In this document: one piece after another, positions 1,936 to 59,137 of the stretch
How the letters are laid out: each line of letters starts with the position of its first letter
Position numbering within the stretch: the stretch's first letter is position 1
IMG/VR virus record: IMGVR_UViG_3300045450_000055
Location: 1 to 64,000 of that record
Direction: 5' to 3' (one strand)
Length of the DNA stretch: 64,000 nt
Origin: a virus
The notes under the pieces: model-generated
What the model saw: the letters and a program-made list of their open reading frames with translations, nothing else
Databases searched by the model: none
Told to the model about the DNA's origin: nothing
Position numbers and translations under genes: made by a program

Positions 1936-2403
1936 ATGTCTGGTGTTCGGTATAGGTGCGGCGTTGCTCATCGATCGTTTCGTCTTCGGGCGCTGGCTCT
2001 GGCAGAGTCGGCGATAATGCCTGTCTATCATGGCAAGCCGCCCTATCTGGAGTGTTCATCAGCCGGTGACAAGCGGTTCTCTGCGTTCTTTGCAAGAGTA
2101 AAGTCGCACGGCAACGCTACGATCGAAGAAGTATACCAAGGCGCAAAGGAGTTCCGCAACGCAGACGGCTCCAAGTCATCTGGCTATTCTGTCAAGGAAG
2201 CCAAGGGTCATCGCCCCGCGAACTATCGAGAAATTACCAATCTGTACTCTCACCTCTGGGACGACTACATGATGGAGAACCCTCATCTTCTAGTTGTCCT
2301 CAAGCAGGTGACGGGCCTGTCGGATCGATTCGGCCGCCCCGGATCAGTGTGTCAGGCGACGGAGCTTTGGCGTATTCGCAATTCATGGATGCTTGACGCT
2401 TAG
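1936..2403 (+). CDS. hypothetical protein (alternative start 2017)
   Basis: track ORF; conserved-looking core PPYLECSSAGDKRFSAFFARV. Confidence 0.6.
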   Translation: MSGVRYRCGVAHRSFRLRALALAESAIMPVYHGKPPYLECSSAGDKRFSAFFARVKSHGNATIEEVYQGAKEFRNADGSKSSGYSVKEAKGHRPANYREITNLYSHLWDDYMMENPHLLVVLKQVTGLSDRFGRPGSVCQATELWRIRNSWMLDA

Positions 2404-49389: not shown

Positions 49390-49684
49390 AGGGACCCTCA
49401 CCTAAGGGGTCCGAGCCCAACGCCCACCTGAAAGGTGGTGGCCTGTTCTGTTCCAACGTCAGGTTCCCCACGCGGCCTGCCGGGGTCAACCAGCAGGAGT
49501 TTTTGCCTTACTTCACCAGCGAACTGGCTCCGATCGGCGGGTAGGAATTACGCCGCGAGGCGCATTTCCACGACAGTGTTGTCGTTCGCATTTACATGCT
49601 TTGGCCTGTTCGCCCCGGAGGACAGGTCAGCCATGCCTAATCGCGTCTTCTCTTCGCCTTGCCCGTCGATCCTAGTTCGTCCCC
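49390..49684 (-). ncRNA. ssrA: tmRNA coding piece of a two-piece permuted ssrA; 3' end uncertain
   Basis: 5' GGGGACGAACTAGGATCGACGGG (cf. E. coli GGGGCUGAUUCUGGAUUCGACGGG); tag GCG AAC GAC AAC ACT GTC GTG GAA ATG CGC CTC GCG GCG TAA at 49589..49548; pseudoknots downstream. Confidence 0.75.
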
Positions 49685-49749
49685 ATCAACGACACAGGCC
49701 CTGTGAGTGGGCTAGGTCCCTTCACAGGCGATAACGGTGCCTGTGCCGA

Positions 49750-49835
49750 TGGTGGAGACGACGGGTACTGCCCCCGTGTCCGAGCCAAAGTTCCGATCGT
49801 CCGAATTACGATCATCTCACCATCACTGGTGACGA
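49750..49835 (-). ncRNA. ssrA: tmRNA acceptor piece; 5' end uncertain
   Basis: ..CTCGGAC-ACGGG-GGCAGTA-CCCGT-CGTCTCC-A-CCA ends at 49750; CGTCTCC pairs with GGGGACG giving G3:U70. Confidence 0.7.
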
Positions 49836-50672
49836 GGACACTGAACTGGAAATCTGCCCCACTGGTTCCAACCAGCTATGTCAACTAGGGGTTAATGCCG
49901 GTTCGGCGGCTCAGATGTTCAGTGTCCACATCACTGGTGATGAGGACAATGAGAATGATTGGCACGCGCGCCGCCCACTTTTACGATACCGTTTACCTCA
50001 GGGAGTCGAACCCCCGGCACCGTTCTCATTGTCCACATCACAAGTGACCATCACACCCTATGAGGAGACACCAAGCTCGTCAAGGTCACTACTCCCGACT
50101 TGCCGGCCCAGTGTAGACCCACATGGAAGGGTGTTTCTGCCCCGCCTTGCTGTGTCCCCACATAGGGAGTGATGTATGTCGGTTGGGGCTCAGGCTTCGG
50201 CACCGCACTCCGGGTATGATCTCCCGGCTCTCTTGGTCCTACCACTCTGGCCCCACCCGGATCGTCAGATCAGTTTGGGTATGCTCCCGCGCCTTTGAGG
50301 CTGATGGAGCTAGTCTGAGTTCGACTCAGTGTAGCGATTATTCTCGCGACTATCGGAAAATGCACTACGCCTCCTATATAACGGCGCAGCGCCTGCATCG
50401 CTTCCGGCTCAGCCGGTCACATCTACCGCAGCTTCATGGTCGGGAACTCCCCATTCGACGATCACGCCCCACGATCGCAGGGGCTGGAAACAAAGTGGGA
50501 GGCATCTAACCCTCCCGCACCATTTAGCCGCCCCTGAGTACCGCGCCAAATAGCGCACCTCAGATGTCCTCCTCGGGACCGGCAGTCAAGGGCGTGGACC
50601 CCTACACCATTCTGCGCCGCGAGGCAGTCTCCGGTCCCGGCGGGGAAACCCGGCGACACCCTCGCTTGGTGT
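49836..50672 (-). ncRNA. candidate large structured RNA (unknown family) upstream of the tmRNA
   Basis: own promoter; no credible ORF on either strand; many nested helices; two tandem stem-closed modules at 49836..50034. Confidence 0.4.
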
Positions 50673-52811: not shown

Positions 52812-52887
52812 TGGAGGACGGACAGGGGCTTGAACCCTGCACCTTCGGAGTAAGAATCCGCTGCTCTACCTACTGAGCTATCCGTCC
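52812..52887 (-). tRNA. tRNA-Lys(CTT)
   Basis: loop TTCTTAC; perfect acceptor GGACGGA/TCCGTCC; CCA encoded; complementary leader/trailer. Confidence 0.85.
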
Positions 52888-53026
52888 GCTAAATCAGCAC
52901 CGGAAGCTCAGGCACGCCACCGGTTAGAGGGTAAACCCTCGTTCGCCTTCTCGGCGATCCCGTTTGCGATCGAACATCATGACTAACTCGAAATCCTTTT
53001 GACGCATGATTGCGTCTGTGAGGCGA

Positions 53027-53055
53027 CTTATACACAACCACATAGGCTGTGTCAA
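53027..53055 (-). promoter_or_regulatory. promoter of tRNA array 1
   Basis: TTGACA-N17-TATAAG. Confidence 0.65.
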
Positions 53056-53065
53056 CATAAAAATG

Positions 53066-53098
53066 AAAAAGCGGAGACTTTTTCAGTCTCCGCTTTTC
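53066..53098 (-). terminator. rho-independent terminator (bidirectional palindrome)
   Basis: AGCGGAGACT-ttttc-AGTCTCCGCT flanked by A5/T4. Confidence 0.8.
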
Positions 53099-53125
53099 AC
53101 ATTCGCTCGAAAATGTCAGTTCGTA

Positions 53126-53803
53126 TCAGACCATCGCGTATCCGCGGTGGCGGCGACGCATCCGGGACGCCGCGCCGACCATGGCGAAGCCGACCATCAT
53201 CATCGCCCACGTCGCCGGCTCGGGGACCGCGCCGATGGTCATGCTGTCGATCTCGAAGCCGTTGACCGTCGAGTTGAGGCGCACGCCCTTGACCGCCTGA
53301 TCGGCATCGGTGAAGGTGAAGGTAACCAGACGGTTCGTCAGATCGCTGGTCCAGTCACCGTTGGGGTCGGCCGGGGCGACCACCGCCGCGCCGGTGAACA
53401 GATCGCCGATCGCATATTCCGTCGCGCCGTCGAGGCCGAAGAACTGGAGGCTGTTGTGATGATCCGCGGAGCCCCAGAGGAAGGAAACCGTCGAGATGCC
53501 GGTGCCGATCACGTCGAAGAAGATCGAACCGATGCCCTCGCCGGGACCGTTGAAGGTGGGGCCGACCGAATAATAGCTGCCGGCGCTGCCGACCGGGACC
53601 GCGTGCTGGTTCTCGACGGAGGGCGGCGTCACGATCGCGCCACCGGTGTTGACCGGCGTCTTGCCGTCGAAGTCGTAGGTGATCGTGTCGGCATTGGTCG
53701 TCGAATAGTCGGTCGGGGCGGCGACGCTGGTGACGGTAACCGCGGCGCTGGCGACGGACGGGGTGGCGAGCAGCATGGCTGCCATCATCAAAATCTTGTT
53801 CAT
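53126..53803 (-). CDS. PEP-CTERM (PEPxxWA variant) sorting-domain secreted protein
   Basis: signal peptide MNKILMMAAMLLATPSVASA; C-terminus VPEPATWAMMMVGFAMVGAASRMRRR. Confidence 0.75.
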   Translation of the reverse strand: MNKILMMAAMLLATPSVASAAVTVTSVAAPTDYSTTNADTITYDFDGKTPVNTGGAIVTPPSVENQHAVPVGSAGSYYSVGPTFNGPGEGIGSIFFDVIGTGISTVSFLWGSADHHNSLQFFGLDGATEYAIGDLFTGAAVVAPADPNGDWTSDLTNRLVTFTFTDADQAVKGVRLNSTVNGFEIDSMTIGAVPEPATWAMMMVGFAMVGAASRMRRRHRGYAMV

Positions 53804-53886
53804 GGTGTCTCCTTCTCGTTCAGTGGTAAGACCTCGTTACGGGAACAAACCGATTCGCACAAGAAGGAGACATACTTAACCGGGTG

Positions 53887-54054
53887 TTAACTACGATTCT
53901 TGCGGACCAGACGTTCGAGACGGCTGATCTCAGGGGACAGCAAGCCGTTGGCAAGGCTCTCGACGTTGTTGAAGGTGCCATTGACCATGTGGGAGTAGAG
54001 ATGTCGAAGCTGCGCCAAGGCGAACTCGATGTTCATCCGATCTTCGTTATTCAT
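53887..54054 (-). CDS. hypothetical small protein (55 aa, below track cutoff)
   Basis: hand-translated MNNEDRMNIEFALAQLRHLYSHMVNGTF..; TAGATG junction. Confidence 0.5.
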   Translation of the reverse strand: MNNEDRMNIEFALAQLRHLYSHMVNGTFNNVESLANGLLSPEISRLERLVRKNRS

Positions 54055-54375
54055 CTACGCCATCCCCATTGCGTTTCGAATCTTTTGCTGAGCGGTAAGG
54101 GTGCCTTCACGCCGGCCGATCTCTCGCTCCTGCTTGCAGATGCGGAGCATGGTCACCACTCCCTCAACCGTCATGGTTCCGGGAATCGAGGTGAGACCGA
54201 TTCCGCCACGCTCCCGGCTGCGGAAGCCATTACGATACGAGATCAGGCTGTGCGGCCCGGTCTCCCTCTCGTAGGTCATGAGTTGCAAGGGCTCGCCCTC
54301 GTACTCGAAGTAGAATGTCCGGTAACCTTTACGGGCGTCCGGCACCTCCTCGAACGGTGTGGGGTCGTGGTTCAT
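54055..54375 (-). CDS. hypothetical protein
   Basis: internal ATG of track ORF 54055..54393; TAATG coupling. Confidence 0.6.
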   Translation of the reverse strand: MNHDPTPFEEVPDARKGYRTFYFEYEGEPLQLMTYERETGPHSLISYRNGFRSRERGGIGLTSIPGTMTVEGVVTMLRICKQEREIGRREGTLTAQQKIRNAMGMA

Positions 54376-54584
54376 TACTGGTCCTTCAACCACACCGACA
54401 CGACAGGGTAGACCATACCGATAGTATGCAGGCCCCAGTGTACGTCGTGTACGGTTCCACCGACCACTTCATTACCCTTCTCATCGCGGATGGTGATGCT
54501 CTCACCTATACGCGGGACGGCAATCATGTGGTCCTGCCACGACCGCTCGTGGGCATCGGTGATAATCACCATGGGCGGCATCAT
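54375..54584 (-). CDS. hypothetical protein
   Basis: track ORF. Confidence 0.6.
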   Translation of the reverse strand: MMPPMVIITDAHERSWQDHMIAVPRIGESITIRDEKGNEVVGGTVHDVHWGLHTIGMVYPVVSVWLKDQ

Positions 54585-54946
54585 TGTTGCTTCTCCATCA
54601 TCTCGCGGATCGCCGCGAGGTCAGCCTTGATCTGCTCTTGCTCGGCGTGGGTGAACGCATCACTATCCACGACCAGCTTGGCAGTGATGAGAGCGGTCAT
54701 CACAGGGAAGGCGAACCCCGGACCGAAGTGCATGAGGAAGAGGGCGATACACCTACCCACCCATGTGACAGGGTACATGTCGCCGTATCCCGTCGTGGTT
54801 GCTGTCGTGAAGGCCCACCACAAGCTGTCTGTGATGTTCTTGCCTTCGGCCAGATCGTAAGCGCCTGCTGCCACGATGACGATGACCGTATAGATCACCG
54901 CCACCGTGGCGAAGCTGCTGCCGACCAGTGTCAGCAGCCGACGCAT
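54581..54946 (-). CDS. minimal two-TM potassium channel (KcsA/Kcv-like pore)
   Basis: TM1 - pore helix - selectivity filter TATTTGYGD - TM2; 121 aa. Confidence 0.75.
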   Translation of the reverse strand: MRRLLTLVGSSFATVAVIYTVIVIVAAGAYDLAEGKNITDSLWWAFTTATTTGYGDMYPVTWVGRCIALFLMHFGPGFAFPVMTALITAKLVVDSDAFTHAEQEQIKADLAAIREMMEKQQ

Positions 54947-55092
54947 CAGTCGAAGGCCAGTTCAGCCAGACTGGACAGCATCTCGCCGACGAGTTCGAAG
55001 ATCACGGCGACGAGCTTGCCGATCGCGAACTTGATGGCGAGGTAGATGGCAACGATCGCTGTGAGGATCAGCGAAAGGAAAAGAACGGTCAT
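54946..55092 (-). CDS. 48-aa single-TM protein (below track cutoff)
   Basis: hand-translated MTVLFLSLILTAIVAIYLAIKF..; GGAGAC RBS; TGATG coupling to channel gene. Confidence 0.5.
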   Translation of the reverse strand: MTVLFLSLILTAIVAIYLAIKFAIGKLVAVIFELVGEMLSSLAELAFD

Positions 55093-55113
55093 GGCCGTCT
55101 CCAGTTCGAGGGA

Positions 55114-55689
55114 TTAACGACGACGGCTGCGGCTGCTGCTGTACGACCGGGTGGTCGTGGTCGTCGAGTACGAAGGACGCGAGTACGACGGACGGGTATA
55201 GGACGGTCGAGTGAAGCCGCTCGAACGACGCGTGGTCGTGGTCGTCGTGGTCTTGCGGCCGAACAGACCACCGTTGCGAGTGGTGGTCGTCACGACACGC
55301 GTGGTCGGCATGGACGTGATGGGCCGGCGATAGCGCACCGAGTACGGACGATAGTTGGGCCGGGTGACATAGCGATACGAGTTGTCGTAGCGTCCGATCG
55401 GCACGAAGCGGCCGTGGTAGCTGGGATCGCGCTGCATGTAGTAGCGAGGACCGCTCGGGGTCATCATCTTGGCGAGCATGTAGCCCGCCGCAGCGCCGCC
55501 CAGACCGCCGACCAGATACTTCGACACGTCACCACCGGCGTCGCGGAACTGGCTGCACTCCTGCGGGTTCTGCGCCTGCAAGCACTGGTCGTCCTGCTGA
55601 GCGAACTGGTCCTGCGGGACGGCATTGCTGCCGCAGCCGGCGGTGAACATCGAGACGGCCACGGCCGCGGCGATGATGAGCTTGTTCAT
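55114..55689 (-). CDS. lipoprotein with Thr-rich and RPSY repeats
   Basis: lipobox ..MFTAG-C; TRPSYTRPSYSRPSY and poly-T runs. Confidence 0.65.
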   Translation of the reverse strand: MNKLIIAAAVAVSMFTAGCGSNAVPQDQFAQQDDQCLQAQNPQECSQFRDAGGDVSKYLVGGLGGAAAGYMLAKMMTPSGPRYYMQRDPSYHGRFVPIGRYDNSYRYVTRPNYRPYSVRYRRPITSMPTTRVVTTTTRNGGLFGRKTTTTTTTRRSSGFTRPSYTRPSYSRPSYSTTTTTRSYSSSRSRRR

Positions 55690-55737
55690 GTAGTCTGTCT
55701 CCTGTTGTTGATTCGCTGTGAACTTCTGAGGCCCTGA

Positions 55738-55765
55738 CTGTTAGCGATTCTTTCCAGCGTGTCAA
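55738..55765 (-). promoter_or_regulatory. minus-strand promoter
   Basis: TTGACA-N16-TAACAG. Confidence 0.5.
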
Positions 55766-55777
55766 CAGGAATCAGAA

Positions 55778-55822
55778 AGGCCCGGAACTTTCTCGCATTT
55801 CGTGCAAGAGAGTTCCGGGCCT
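55778..55822 (-). terminator. terminator of tRNA array 2
   Basis: AGGCCCGGAACT..-loop-..AGTTCCGGGCCT long hairpin. Confidence 0.7.
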
Positions 55823-55830
55823 TGGCATGT

Positions 55831-55905
55831 TGGTTGTTCCGGGAGGATTTGAACCTCCGACCTACCGGTTATCAGCCGGGCGCTCTACCCCTGAGCTACG
55901 GAACA
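55831..55905 (-). tRNA. tRNA-Ile(GAT)
   Basis: loop CTGATAA; T-arm GGAGG-TTCAAAT-CCTCC; U1:A72; CCA encoded. Confidence 0.8.
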
Positions 55906-56779: not shown

Positions 56780-56855
56780 TGGTCTCGGTGACAGGTCTCG
56801 AACCTGCGGCCTCCTGCTCCCTAAGCAGGCGCTCTACCAACTGAGCTACACCAAG
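56780..56855 (-). tRNA. tRNA-Pro(AGG), unusual A34
   Basis: C1:G72; CCTGC-TTAGGGA-GCAGG; T-arm GCAGG-TTCGAGA-CCTGT; CCA encoded. Confidence 0.75.
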
Positions 56856-56856
56856 A

Positions 56857-56891
56857 CAAAGAAAAGGCCCCGGAACGAATGTTCTGAGGCC
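56857..56891 (-). terminator. terminator-like hairpin 2 nt upstream of the first tRNA of array 2
   Basis: GGCCTCAGAAC-attc-GTTCCGGGGCC + TTTTCTTTG on minus. Confidence 0.5.
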
Positions 56892-56924
56892 CAAAATCGT
56901 GGTGTGTCAGGTAGTGTAGCGGGC

Positions 56925-57020
56925 TTAGCCTACACTGCCTCCGTCATCGACACGCACCATCACAATCGCCGCGACGGCGGCGATCATTGGTGCGGGGTTG
57001 TTATTGATGACGGTTGTCAT
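56925..57020 (-). CDS. possible 31-aa leader peptide (or non-coding leader)
   Basis: hand-translated MTTVINNNPAPMIAAVAAIVMVRVDDGGSVG; weak RBS. Confidence 0.2.
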   Translation of the reverse strand: MTTVINNNPAPMIAAVAAIVMVRVDDGGSVG

Positions 57021-57053
57021 GGCGGAAACTACTTATCCTTGAATTGAAGCCGA

Positions 57054-57082
57054 ACTATAACCAACTACTTGCTGGTTGTCAA
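57054..57082 (-). promoter_or_regulatory. promoter of tRNA array 2
   Basis: TTGACA-N17-TATAGT. Confidence 0.7.
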
Positions 57083-57091
57083 GAAGAAAAT

Positions 57092-57570
57092 GAAGCCGGG
57101 AGGATTTGAACCTCCGTATGGACACTCAACGGACCCCTAGCGTCCTCGCATCCATTATTGCTTGGGTCACCGATAAACCGGGCTCCGGCACGGCTGCTGG
57201 TGAACCCTGAGGCTCACCCTTGACTACCGGACTTACGTCCGGGATCACCAACAATGAGGACAGCCAGAGGGGAGACAATGACTGCCCACATTGTGGGTGA
57301 AACGAATGTACCGGTTGTTTACCGGCTAGGAATCCCGGTCATCAGTCACCATTGCGACCTACATACCACCCAGACATTCTCGACGGGTTGAGATTACACC
57401 GTCTGCGATCCGTCGTTCGTGCGGATTATAGCAGCCTTGCGAGCCACCTTCCCGACTTATCCACCAAGCCCCTTGCGGTAGCCCGGTCCCAGATCAACGC
57501 CGCCTACTTTTCCCGGTTCTCACGGGGCCGCTGGCTGTTGCGGCGACACTACGGACCTTTCAGCAGCTTC
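57092..57570 (-). ncRNA. candidate ~480-nt structured RNA closed by a 7-bp end helix stacked on a canonical T-arm
   Basis: 5' GAAGCTG pairs 3' CGGCTTC; adjacent GGAGG-TTCAAAT-CCTCC; many internal hairpins (e.g. CCGGAC-gtaa-GTCCGG); no credible ORF; T-run follows. Confidence 0.4.
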
Positions 57571-57728
57571 CAATCCGCCGACGCTCTCACGCCGTTAAGG
57601 GTTTGCGGCCCAACGAACCTTCATCTACTAAACCCTCCTCGACTTGCGGTCTTAGCGGGCACCACGTTGAGACTAGCTCCGTGGCGTTAGGCGTTTTCAG
57701 TTCCGTAGTCGTGACAATCTTTGCGTTT

Positions 57729-57803
57729 TGGTTGCGACTACCGGGGTTGAACCGGCGATCTACAGATTAAGAGTCTGTTGCTTTACCACTAAGCTAAGTT
57801 GCC
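57729..57803 (-). tRNA. tRNA-Lys(CTT)-like with two acceptor mismatches (possible pseudo-tRNA)
   Basis: D-arm GCTT-AGTGGTA-AAGC; ACAGA-CTCTTAA-TCTGT; T-arm GCCGG-TTCAACC-CCGGT; G1-A72 and A4-C69; CCA encoded. Confidence 0.5.
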
Positions 57804-58228
57804 AAGCCACCGAGACGAGCTATCACCTAGTTTCCATGATGTTTCCACCGCAGAAATGCTAGTCGCCTCATGTCCTCTCATGCCGCTAAGCACTACTAGA
57901 ACGGTTGATTCAGGAGGTTCTAAATCCCCTGACCAACTGATTGACGCCCTCGACCGCTAAGTCTCGAACCTTCAACCTTGTGCTTTGTCATCAACAACTG
58001 GTAGTTAGTGCAGAGCTTCGGGTACTACCCCGACGTTTAGTGAACACCGTTGGCCTCCACCTATCCCTTACGGGCCTCATTCTACCAGCAGCCTATCTCC
58101 TGTCACCAGAAGAAGCCCTCGCGAGCCTAACTGCACCTGCCTGAAATCTCCGGTTGCCCGGCGGAGTTAAGTGGCCTTACCTCCTTTGGGGTTCCTTGCG
58201 GAACCTTGTGCCCCTCAGGCGGGGTGTG
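57804..58228 (-). ncRNA. candidate ~425-nt structured 5' RNA of the same transcription unit
   Basis: starts after promoter 58235..58263; no credible ORF; hairpins e.g. GGTTCC-gcaa-GGAACC, CCGG-gcaa-CCGG. Confidence 0.3.
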
Positions 58229-58234
58229 TCGTTG

Positions 58235-58263
58235 CATCTACAGAACGATGTGACTGTTGTCAA
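58235..58263 (-). promoter_or_regulatory. minus-strand promoter of the 58.2-57.1 kb RNA unit
   Basis: TTGACA-N17-TAGATG. Confidence 0.5.
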
Positions 58264-58372
58264 CAACTTTCTTCGAGGTATCCACATTTTTCTTCGTGTC
58301 AGTCATACTGCCTGATGCGAGGAGAAATGTGGGTGGGAGATGCCTAGACACCTCCCAACCGATTCGCAAGCG

Positions 58373-59137
58373 TTATTCGCCGCCTGCGAGCCAGACCCGG
58401 CGGCCGGTGACCAGCGGACCTTCACCGTTGACCCGCTCGGTCGTCTTACGCGACCAGAAGACCTTGCCGGCCTCCTTGTGGCGCTTGCGGCCCGACGCCA
58501 GCCGATCGTCGGCCTTGTCCTCGTCGGGGATGAAGAACGACGGCCCGACGATCTCGCCCTTGACCTTCTTCGCAGGGGTCAGTTCGCCGAAAGGATACTC
58601 CTCCGGCTTCGGCGCACGGGAGATACGCGTCACCATGGGCATGACCGAGATCAGTACGCCCTTGGTGCCGCCACGCGTCTCCTTGCCCGCCGCCTTGCCA
58701 GACGTGTCGGCATCCTGCCGCTCGGCCGTGCCAGCTTCCTGCGTCTGCTTGCCCTCGTCAGGATCGCGCCCGGACATACGCGCCCGGCTACGGTGAAGTG
58801 CTTCGGACATCGACATGTCCGCCTGCTTCTGCCCGTTGGCACGACCACGCCCCGAACCTGCCGGCTGGGTCTCGACCTTGCCCTTGCGCCGGGGAGCCGG
58901 CTTCTGGACTTCGGCCGCGGCAGCAGCCTGTGCCTGCTTGCCGATCGGGTCGGGCTGCTTGTTCGATGCCCGGCGGTTCGGCTTGGCCGGCGGAGTCTCC
59001 GCTGCCTTGCGACGCGAAGAGGCAGGTGTTGCCGCCTGCGTCTGGGTGTCGGCTGCCTTGCCGCGGCGCTTGGCCGGAGCCGGGACGGGCTCAGCGGCCT
59101 TGCGACGACGTGGGGTGCCTGCTGCTTGTGTTTCCAT
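58373..59137 (-). CDS. highly basic low-complexity protein (histone-H1-like N-terminal half)
   Basis: AAGGAGG RBS before ATG 59137; K/R/A/P-rich repeats; globular C-terminal ~90 aa. Confidence 0.6.
   Translation of the reverse strand: METQAAGTPRRRKAAEPVPAPAKRRGKAADTQTQAATPASSRRKAAETPPAKPNRRASNKQPDPIGKQAQAAAAAEVQKPAPRRKGKVETQPAGSGRGRANGQKQADMSMSEALHRSRARMSGRDPDEGKQTQEAGTAERQDADTSGKAAGKETRGGTKGVLISVMPMVTRISRAPKPEEYPFGELTPAKKVKGEIVGPSFFIPDEDKADDRLASGRKRHKEAGKVFWSRKTTERVNGEGPLVTGRRVWLAGGE

Follow-up and report, generated by a model that had tools for sequence, protein, structure and literature searches.

A GOLLD RNA followed by a lineage-variable trailer of structured RNA modules beside a phage tRNA array

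The large non-coding phage RNA GOLLD, for which Weinberg and colleagues (in 2009) are reportedly the source, has an unknown function despite recent cage structures. A study that resolved GOLLD by cryo-EM as a 14-mer nanocage describes a 5′ domain that varies and a 3′ domain that is universally conserved, together with a disordered linker in which tRNAs are sometimes found; the RNA is encoded close to tRNA islands in phage and prophage genomes (Kretsch et al., 2025, PMC12286853). The locus considered here is the interval 57092–57570, minus strand, of a 64,000-nucleotide (nt) stretch of DNA (positions 1–64,000 of IMG/VR record IMGVR_UViG_3300045450_000055, hereafter the window), a phage-like sequence whose nearest relatives are Erythrobacter phages and whose minus strand carries all 28 of its tRNA genes as well as a permuted tmRNA (ARAGORN, confirmed by an Rfam scan). 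The original prediction had drawn this interval as a single RNA of about 480 nt whose ends form an acceptor-like helix stacked on a T-arm. We put the probability at roughly 80% that it is instead the end of a GOLLD RNA followed by a lineage-variable trailer of autonomous modules, and not one closed RNA.

Rfam was scanned twice, with gathering thresholds on the window and with permissive E-value thresholds (E ≤ 10) on the approximately 1 kb at 56850–57900. Since the gathering-threshold scan gave no match inside 57092–57570, GOLLD is visible only in the permissive scan, in which RF02032 aligns to 57869–57385 on the minus strand over its full length (model positions 1–416 of 416) with 137 bits and an E-value of 6.8e-38. 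The match is statistically unambiguous despite its sub-cut-off score, and the locus adds a so far unannotated GOLLD to a known family. In the alignment the helices of the model are retained, as are its bracketed pseudoknot strands, and non-standard pairs are few; 15 of the 47 predicted pairs in the GOLLD tail show double (compensatory) changes among nine clade sequences. Beyond these compensatory helices, the locus has the variable 5′ domain, the tRNA-holding linker and the phage site beside a tRNA island that mark the family.

Relatives were recovered from IMG/VR by anchoring on a small tyrosine recombinase gene about 2 kb upstream of the interval, and the comparison set comprises the Erythrobacter phages XM05 and vB_EliS-L02 and six distinct IMG/VR contigs (eight CbK-like relatives; individual relatives carry handles such as L001). 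These searches gave relatives of at most 63% identity and no close trailer relatives. Full-length sub-threshold RF02032 matches with an embedded tRNA occur in XM05 and vB_EliS-L02 (141.9 and 120.4 bits), and across the clade the scores range from 120 to 142 bits (E 1e-32 to 1e-38), all under the cut-off of 150 bits, which is why Rfam-based annotation misses the GOLLD of this clade. The GenBank records of the relatives have no annotated feature at the GOLLD location, and the paper on vB_EliS-L02 does not mention GOLLD (PMC9127768). The parts of the RNA are as follows.

57385–57869, minus strand: GOLLD 3′ conserved domain, matched by RF02032; it contains 57570–57385, the first 186 nt of the flagged interval
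57870–58229, minus strand: GOLLD 5′ variable domain, with homology to XM05, vB_EliS-L02 and IMG/VR relatives by blastn and nhmmer
57729–57803, minus strand: tRNA-Lys(CUU)-like gene in the GOLLD linker, called by ARAGORN, 59.8 bits with the Rfam tRNA model
58236–58264, minus strand: GOLLD promoter TTGACA-N17-TAGATG, read from the sequence, with a putative start near 58229
2504–2988 in L001 and 2500–2990 in L002: GOLLD in relatives, RF02032 below cut-off

Pairwise comparison finds 58265–57382 of the window (884 nt) homologous to the relatives; the homology reaches 360–400 nt upstream of the RF02032-modelled domain and ends exactly at the end of the GOLLD model, at 57382. A blastn search against 50,697 phage records matched only XM05 and vB_EliS-L02, and only over 57382–57796. 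The promoter form TTGACA-N17-TAGAnn is kept where GOLLD homology begins in L001, L003, L004, L007, L009 and L011, and the whole GOLLD of the window would thus run under its own promoter (58264–58236) from a start presumably near 58229 to 57385, about 845 nt. Gene order is common to the window and all eight relatives: recombinase, hypothetical gene, GOLLD with its embedded tRNA, spacer, promoter, small open reading frame (sORF), terminator and tRNA-Pro. The first description of a non-coding, densely structured RNA within a tRNA region is borne out; 57021–58372 holds no minus-strand open reading frame (ORF) of more than 50 amino acids and none with any support.

The tRNA-Lys-like gene sits in unpaired linker columns of the RF02032 model, and the equivalent position in the relatives holds a tRNA for Lys, Ile, Arg or Glu. 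Because its Rfam tRNA alignment has two non-standard acceptor-stem pairs, and because a second tRNA-Lys(CUU) gene lies in the main array (52812–52887, minus strand), the embedded copy may be structural rather than a working tRNA. A second promoter-like site within the GOLLD 5′ domain (58079–58106, minus strand; GTGACA-16-TAGAAT with an upstream TG, 10 of 12 matches) may be due to chance, with 0.8 such sites expected per 2 kb. Separately, L001, L003, L004, L007, L009 and L011 share a conserved, apparently non-coding block of about 150 nt, some 30–180 nt upstream of the GOLLD promoter, with the landmarks GGCCGGUCUGGU..GGAUACG..AGGGCGGGUAGAACGGGGGAAGCCCCGAGAUCACCGGCCCCC..GCGCAAGUG..GUCACGCGGUAAG. 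The window has no such block; there, a protein-coding gene ends at 58373.

Like published GOLLD, the window RNA combines a full-length 3′-domain match with a variable 5′ domain, a total of about 845 nt, a linker tRNA and a place at the head of a phage tRNA island. It differs in a score of 137 bits against the cut-off of 150 and in its alphaproteobacterial hosts (CbK-like phages of Erythrobacter and relatives). The published RNA is a 14-mer cage (PMC12286853). The window GOLLD is trailed by modular structured RNA, a trailer of a kind that the excerpted text of PMC12286853 does not mention for GOLLD. ROOL and other large phage non-coding RNAs share the niche of the window RNA (in phages, beside tRNA arrays, structured, non-coding), and the Rfam scans returned no match to ROOL or another large non-coding RNA family in the window. 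The nearness of GOLLD to phage tRNAs is expected, while the modular trailer and the S motif that it contains are new and functionally unexplained.

The strands of the proposed closing helix are where they had been placed, GAAGCTG at 57570–57564 and CGGCTTC at 57098–57092, the latter followed by A at 57091 and then TTTT, and a 7-bp helix with one G-U pair can be drawn immediately beside a perfect T-arm. The 5′ strand, however, begins in the middle of the GOLLD 3′ domain (57869–57385) and overlaps a covarying GOLLD helix: the CUG of GAAGCUG lies in AGUAG/CUGCU, which appears in relatives as GGUGG/CYGCC and GGUGC/GUGCC (alignment of nine clade members). The window sequence GGAAGCUGCUG aligns to CGAAGCUGCCG, CGAAACUGCCG, GGGAACCGCCG, AGAAAGUGCCG and similar sequences in the relatives, in which the segment homologous to GAAGCUG reads GAAACUG, GGAACCG, GAAAGUG and others and in none of the eight is complementary to the tRNA-like 3′ strand. 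The T-arm-ended modules of the relatives end in CCUGAUC, CCUGCUC, UCCGGGC, CCCACGU or CACCUAG, and these strands pair locally, 145–165 nt upstream (GCCCGGA/UCCGGGC, GCGUGGG/CCCACGU), with covariation at seven of seven pairs.

Moreover, 7-mers able to pair with CGGCUUC by Watson-Crick and G-U pairs number 120 on one strand of the window and 116 on the other; by chance, the 450 nt upstream would hold about 0.85, and 14 further 7-mers between 57120 and 57600 pair at six of the seven positions. Since pairing 7-mers occur at 1.8–1.9 per kb, the closing helix is at chance level. A single tRNA-mimicking RNA of about 480 nt with its ends stacked on the T-arm is very improbable in view of this frequency, of the GOLLD helix that already claims its 5′ strand and of the non-complementary positions in the eight relatives, and also because its interior holds an independently conserved, self-closing motif, the S motif. 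A known Rfam family, GOLLD, matches part of the interval and the end pairing is unconserved in relatives, both of them outcomes that the original prediction had itself named as telling against it. What survives of the tRNA-like ends is an element at 57197–57091; the ends of the 480-nt unit are very unlikely to close a helix. For the scan from which the prediction came, this amounts to a correction: the long-range helix is attractive but at chance level.

Between the GOLLD end and the promoter of the tRNA array, the spacer of the window (57381–57083) contains a trailer of about 290 nt (57380–57091) made up of the S motif, three hairpins (H1–H3) and a tRNA-like element.

57305–57380, minus strand: S motif, with P1 GAAUGU/ACAUUC, core GGUGGUAUGUAG, P2 GUCGC-AAUG-GUGAC, core UGAUGACCGGGAUUCC and P3 CCGGU-AAACA-ACCGG
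57245–57300, minus strand: long hairpin H1, UCACC.CACAAU / AUUGU.GGUGA, minimum free energy (MFE) −29.8 kcal/mol, z = −7.2
57227–57242, minus strand: hairpin H2, CCGGAC-GUAA-GUCCGG with a GNRA tetraloop, from folds
57199–57218, minus strand: hairpin H3, GGUGAGCC-UCAG-GGUUCACC, from a fold
57091–57197, minus strand: degenerate tRNA-like element, 107 nt, from ARAGORN intron mode, MFE folds and the T-arm match
57054–57090, minus strand: T-rich stretch (57090–57083) and sigma-70-type promoter TTGACA-N17-TATAGT (57082–57054), from a promoter scan, 11 of 12 matches

In the relatives, the corresponding spacer measures 186–1494 nt and holds structured modules that recur in differing combinations. The interval is made up of separate RNA modules and has a lineage-variable trailer, and the space between GOLLD and the array promoter is a place where structured RNA modules gather. 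The trailer as a whole folds with z = −5.3 relative to shuffles, a value driven by the hairpins.

The six hairpins listed in the original prediction are all at their sites and are distributed over these modules. CGCCGC..GCGGCG and CGACGG..CCGTCG belong to GOLLD and are conserved in the eight relatives; the ACCGGGC of ACCGGGC..GCCCGGT likewise lies within the conserved GOLLD region but pairs locally with GCUUGGU. According to the covariance model, CCGGT-aaaca-ACCGG is P3 of the S motif, while CCGGAC-gtaa-GTCCGG is a free-standing hairpin, H2. CCCAC-aat-GTGGG gives way in the MFE fold to the longer hairpin H1. No homologue was found for H2 or H3. A 13-bp long-range helix ACUGAUGACCGGG/CCCGGUUUAUCGGU with an AUG-AGGUC closure, which appears in the MFE structure of the whole trailer, was ruled out as spurious because its 5′ strands, including GACCGGG, are conserved cores of the S motif. 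A pattern for the junction of GOLLD and S had no matches in the metagenome collection.

Recurring modules were also observed in the relatives. Module A, of about 140 nt, occurs in the spacers of L001, L002, L003, L004, L007, L008 and L009 (for instance at about 8590–8730 in L004); it is closed by the 12-bp helix UCACUCGYAAUG/CAUURCNAGUGA and has the inner conserved sequences GGGCGUAGUGACCCC...GAGCUUCGAGAGGCCCC; more units with similar closing stems often come after it. The flanks of H1 (UUCAC...AAUG / CAUU...GUGAU) resemble the closing helix of this module in L001–L009, and H1 is possibly a miniature of it. In L002 and L007, a 56-nt mini tRNA-like core (GCCGCUUC..GGGUUCAAGUCCCU.AGGCGGCUUCAA) caps a stem of about 22–25 bp whose sequence is wholly different between the two. 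Module T, of about 150 nt and downstream of GOLLD, was seen in five relatives.

2156–2315, minus strand, in L001: Module T
8775–8927 in L003: Module T
8411–8590 in L004: Module T
9086–9239 in L007: Module T
9072–9229 in L009: Module T

Its terminal helix of 7 bp shows compensatory changes; a long arm, a hairpin whose GGUUGAUC loop is conserved and a T-arm make up the rest, and the module ends in U-CCA in four of the five copies; default ARAGORN makes no tRNA call. In L001 and L002, on which Rfam was run, only GOLLD and tRNA families match at E ≤ 0.01.

The module next to GOLLD, the S motif, belongs to a candidate RNA family with two conserved cores, GGUGGUAUGUAG and GA(G/U)GACCGGGAU; a hairpin that varies lies between them, another with a (C/A)AACA loop comes after, and a closing stem encloses the whole. 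The window and L003 copies have a common plan of GGUGGUAUGUAG, hairpin, GA(G/U)GACCGGGAU and hairpin with an AACA loop. The pattern GGTGGTATGTAG-N5-30-GACCGGGAT, for which its 21 fixed bases give a rough estimate of one chance match, matches 25 IMG/VR contigs, so that the motif is present in at least 25. A covariance model (R1) built from ten canonical copies scores the window copy at 44.5 bits (E 3e-9), its sole match in 64 kb. This copy, whose family membership is thereby shown, deviates at one core position (GAUGACC, not GAGGACC), and compared with other members its P1, P2 and P3 carry compensatory changes. Over 16 sequences, 89.5% of the cells are paired, whereas slid controls reach 28–46%, and both sides change in 24 of 28 pairs. 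Rfam 15 gives no match to a canonical copy at E ≤ 10, blastn against cultured phages gives none either, and the core strings give only unrelated matches in the searchable literature; by Rfam 15 and that literature, the family is apparently undescribed. With approximately 35 near-invariant nucleotides, it may have a catalytic core or one that binds a ligand, a protein or the ribosome. A hammerhead reading of the window's CUGAUGA was rejected, as most members have CGAGGA there and no conserved GAAA core is found.

The motif keeps company with tRNAs: at 15 of the 17 loci checked, tRNAs lie on the same strand within 1.5 kb, S-carrying loci being tRNA-dense, and the window and L003 copies lie between GOLLD and the tRNA array. 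In AT-rich IMG/VR phages with canonical S, a stem of about 18 bp, AGUGUGYUUCNAUAUGGU ... ACCAUAUNGAAGCACAYU, brackets an ordinary tRNA-Tyr and the S motif alike.

772–895 and 600–707 in L024: stems bracketing tRNA-Tyr and S; also seen in the flanks of L025 and L028

Since it brackets tRNA-Tyr in L024, this outer stem is not specific to S, and by the same token S occupies a “tRNA slot”. This suggests that tRNA-Tyr and S are cassette-like units in tRNA arrays with a common processing stem, perhaps of RNase III type. The window and L003 copies have only the 6-bp P1, without the outer stem and without complementarity between the 5′ junction and the P2 loop. An S-motif pseudoknot is tentative: candidates recur as complementary 5–7-mers (UUAGAG/CUCUAA, UUGACA/UGUCAA, GGUCCAC/GUGGAUU), and in the copies showing such pairing shuffled loops match its length in 4–58% of trials. 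Present in at least 25 unrelated uncultured phages, in tRNA slots and without an Rfam family, the motif is a concrete candidate for an RNA class.

The trailer ends in the tRNA-like element. Its T-arm, GGAGG-TTCAAAT-CCTCC at 57115–57099, is as perfect as first described and more than chance in this setting; outside annotated tRNA and tmRNA genes, the minus strand of the 64 kb has no other T-arm-like motif and the plus strand has one. Together with its flanks it is identical over 21 nt to the tRNA-Ile(GAT) gene at 55858, the identity ending after CGG. The acceptor-like stem GCAGCCG/CGGCUUC, which recurs in MFE folds, has one C-U mismatch and is followed by a discriminator A at 57091; the D-like arm contains CCCGGUUUAUCGG, the stretch likened to RNase P, and the long middle arm is formed by AUGGAUGC...GUGUCCAU. 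From its sequence, the element may be derived from, or have converged on, the phage's own tRNAs. The exact 22-mer of T-arm and acceptor strand has no match in IMG/VR or in 185,579 species genomes, and a loosened pattern finds 34 scattered loci with no consistent tRNA identity. Membership of Module T was considered and rejected: the model R2 scores its five source sequences at 110–134 bits and ordinary window tRNAs at 10–19 bits, and has no match to 57091–57200 at E ≤ 10.

One reading is that 57197–57091 is a functional unusual tRNA or an aminoacylatable mimic, in which the stem GAGGACG/CGGCUUC gives the alanine identity set G3-U70 and A73 and CCA is added after transcription. ARAGORN in intron mode does call a tRNA-Ala(agc) with a 12-nt intron and a mismatched acceptor, the tmRNA model aligns locally to the ends of its tRNA-like domain with GAGGACG as 5′ strand in the register G3-U70 and A73 (22.6 bits, cut-off 47), and vB_EliS-L02 is reported to encode a nucleotidyltransferase-domain protein for tRNA 3′-end repair (PMC9127768). 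This reading is nonetheless improbable, as default ARAGORN makes no cloverleaf call and neither it nor the Rfam gathering scan finds anything at 57091–57197, CCA is absent here and encoded in all 28 window tRNA genes checked, every candidate acceptor stem has a mismatch, and conservation is lacking. A 12-nt tRNA “intron” of this kind is not known to have a bacterial splicing route. The suggestion of a tRNA gene invaded by a large insert likewise finds no support for the 480-nt unit, the weak intron-mode call covering its last 107 nt only.

A stronger competitor, possible though at clearly less than even odds, treats the T-arm and acceptor strand as a relic without function, either a partial duplicate of a phage tRNA gene such as tRNA-Ile or a recombination scar or attP-like core beside the small tyrosine recombinase, with the upstream hairpins incidental or terminators. 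The 21-nt identity with the tRNA-Ile T-arm, the recombinase gene 2 kb upstream, the lack of a homologue and of CCA, and the character of the spacer as a hot spot of gain and loss all favour it. It fits less well that the identity stops after CGG and does not span the whole acceptor strand, that the exact 22-mer is absent from the species genomes and the looser pattern points to no consistent tRNA species, and that the trailer folds far better than shuffles, albeit driven by hairpins. The attP form is weak, there being no host tRNA match and vB_EliS-L02 being described as lytic (PMC9127768).

Known tRNA-like RNAs offer partial parallels. As in MALAT1-mascRNA and MEN-beta, a long structured non-coding RNA ends here in a tRNA-shaped element whose T-arm is canonical and for which no CCA is encoded; mascRNA is eukaryotic, however, the Rfam mascRNA-menRNA model matches only weakly (57092–57144, 18.5 bits, E 0.86), so far under the cut-off of 42.5 that homology is absent, and the window element would at most work as such processing elements do. 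With the tRNA-like domain of tmRNA it has in common an alignment that spans the acceptor 5′ strand, the T-arm, the acceptor 3′ strand and the discriminator A, including G3-U70, whereas the mRNA-like domain, the pseudoknots, the tag ORF and CCA are absent. Like the tRNA pseudogenes and fragments of phage arrays, it has a T-arm identical to that of a neighbouring tRNA, the same strand and a cloverleaf-like closure; unlike them, it measures 107 nt and lacks both CCA and a usable anticodon arm, and its D-like and middle arms are over-long.

A resemblance to the 3′ P4/P2 region of RNase P RNA had also been pointed out, and CCCGGTTTATCGGT is indeed present at 57182–57169. The caution against calling rnpB was well placed, since the universal GAGGAAAGUCCGGGC block is absent and no RNase P family matches at E ≤ 10 in 56850–57900, even with permissive filters over this 1 kb; in the same region, group I introns, group II introns and Y RNA have no match at E ≤ 10. 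Readings as a much reduced RNase P RNA or as a second tmRNA therefore merit hardly any weight. For RNase P one could cite CCCGGUUUAUCGGU, which resembles the 3′ P4/P2 strand of Escherichia coli M1 RNA, and AAGUCCGG (57234–57227), which could serve as the 5′ P4 strand, both likenesses being without covariance-model support; but AAGUCCGG forms the 3′ side of H2, a local GNRA hairpin, and CCCGGUUUAUCGG folds locally (CCG-GUUUAU-CGG). For a second tmRNA there is the weak match to the tRNA-like domain, below its cut-off, against which stand the lack of a coding or pseudoknot part (12 nt versus the 326 of the model) and the permuted tmRNA already present at 49457–49842. The latter is a two-piece, alpha-type tmRNA on the minus strand with the tag ANDNTVVEMRLAA, located downstream of the tRNA array.

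The A and T-run behind the 3′ strand are there, at 57091 and after, but do not fit an RNA tail. Because TTGACA after an (A)TTTTT-rich stretch is kept in all eight relatives, about 235 nt before tRNA-Pro and whichever module lies upstream, the T-run is assigned to the A/T-rich upstream region of the promoter; otherwise it would be a generic stop signal.

To return to the composite, a single primary transcript of about 1.15 kb from the promoter at 58264–58236 may comprise both GOLLD and trailer; in it, the tRNA-Lys-like gene and the terminal tRNA-like element would act as recognition handles for RNase P and RNase Z. Cuts at these handles would yield discrete stable RNAs (GOLLD, S-containing and tRNA-like) with protected ends, as for tRNAs in polycistronic arrays, and the S motif would be freed as a tRNA-sized RNA. 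We advance only tentatively, as a proposal more doubtful than probable, that the trailer extends the GOLLD locus functionally, that S is a new, widespread class of tRNA-sized RNA in tRNA slots that was recruited beside GOLLD in this phage lineage, and that the tRNA-like end, as an RNase P/Z handle, determines the ends of a GOLLD–S RNA. If so, S, like the linker tRNA, would be a candidate partner or cargo of the GOLLD nanocage.

Several points weigh against this picture. The GOLLD match is 13 bits short of the curated cut-off. The tRNA-like element has an ordinary fold energy (z = −1.0) and no homologue was found for it; three alternative 5′ partners, each flawed (GCAGCCG, GAGGACG and AUG-AGGUC), compete in its candidate secondary structures, and it may be a non-functional relic of tRNA-gene duplication. 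A GC-rich hairpin and U-run directly follow GOLLD in XM05 and L011, and a U11 run follows the S copy in L003; given these signals, GOLLD may terminate before the other modules at least in these three, and co-transcription of GOLLD and trailer may not be general. The co-transcription, the processing and the role of the tRNA-like end are matters that we infer. Independently of them, the presence of GOLLD in CbK-like alphaproteobacterial phages, including two cultured lytic Erythrobacter phages, provides a tractable phage–host pair for genetics.

Downstream of the trailer, the beginning of the tRNA array has a conserved arrangement (window 56858–57082, minus strand) that is a candidate leader-peptide attenuator and may be the most interesting item of the neighbourhood.

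57082–57054, minus strand: promoter
57020–56925, minus strand: sORF
about 56945–56911, minus strand: stop-codon hairpin
56891–56866, minus strand: terminator hairpin
56865–56858, minus strand: U-tract
56855, minus strand: tRNA-Pro

All nine phages have one order, namely promoter, ribosome-binding site, an ORF of 27–31 amino acids, a hairpin that spans the stop codon, a strong intrinsic terminator and tRNA-Pro, followed by Pro, (Met, Val), Ile, Asn and Ala. The leader peptide of the window is MTTVINNNPAPMIAAVAAIVMVRVDDGGSVG. Between 63% and 79% of the leader-peptide residues are P, M, V, I, N or A, versus 32% in five window ORFs, for a residue set that was picked post hoc; these are the amino acids of the tRNAs directly downstream of the leader ORF. 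Between clades the residue order is shuffled and the composition kept, and the leader folds with z = −5.3. A brief literature search found no precedent for a leader-peptide attenuator of a tRNA array. Further along the array, a gap of about 2.9 kb (52888–55830) separates two tRNA clusters.

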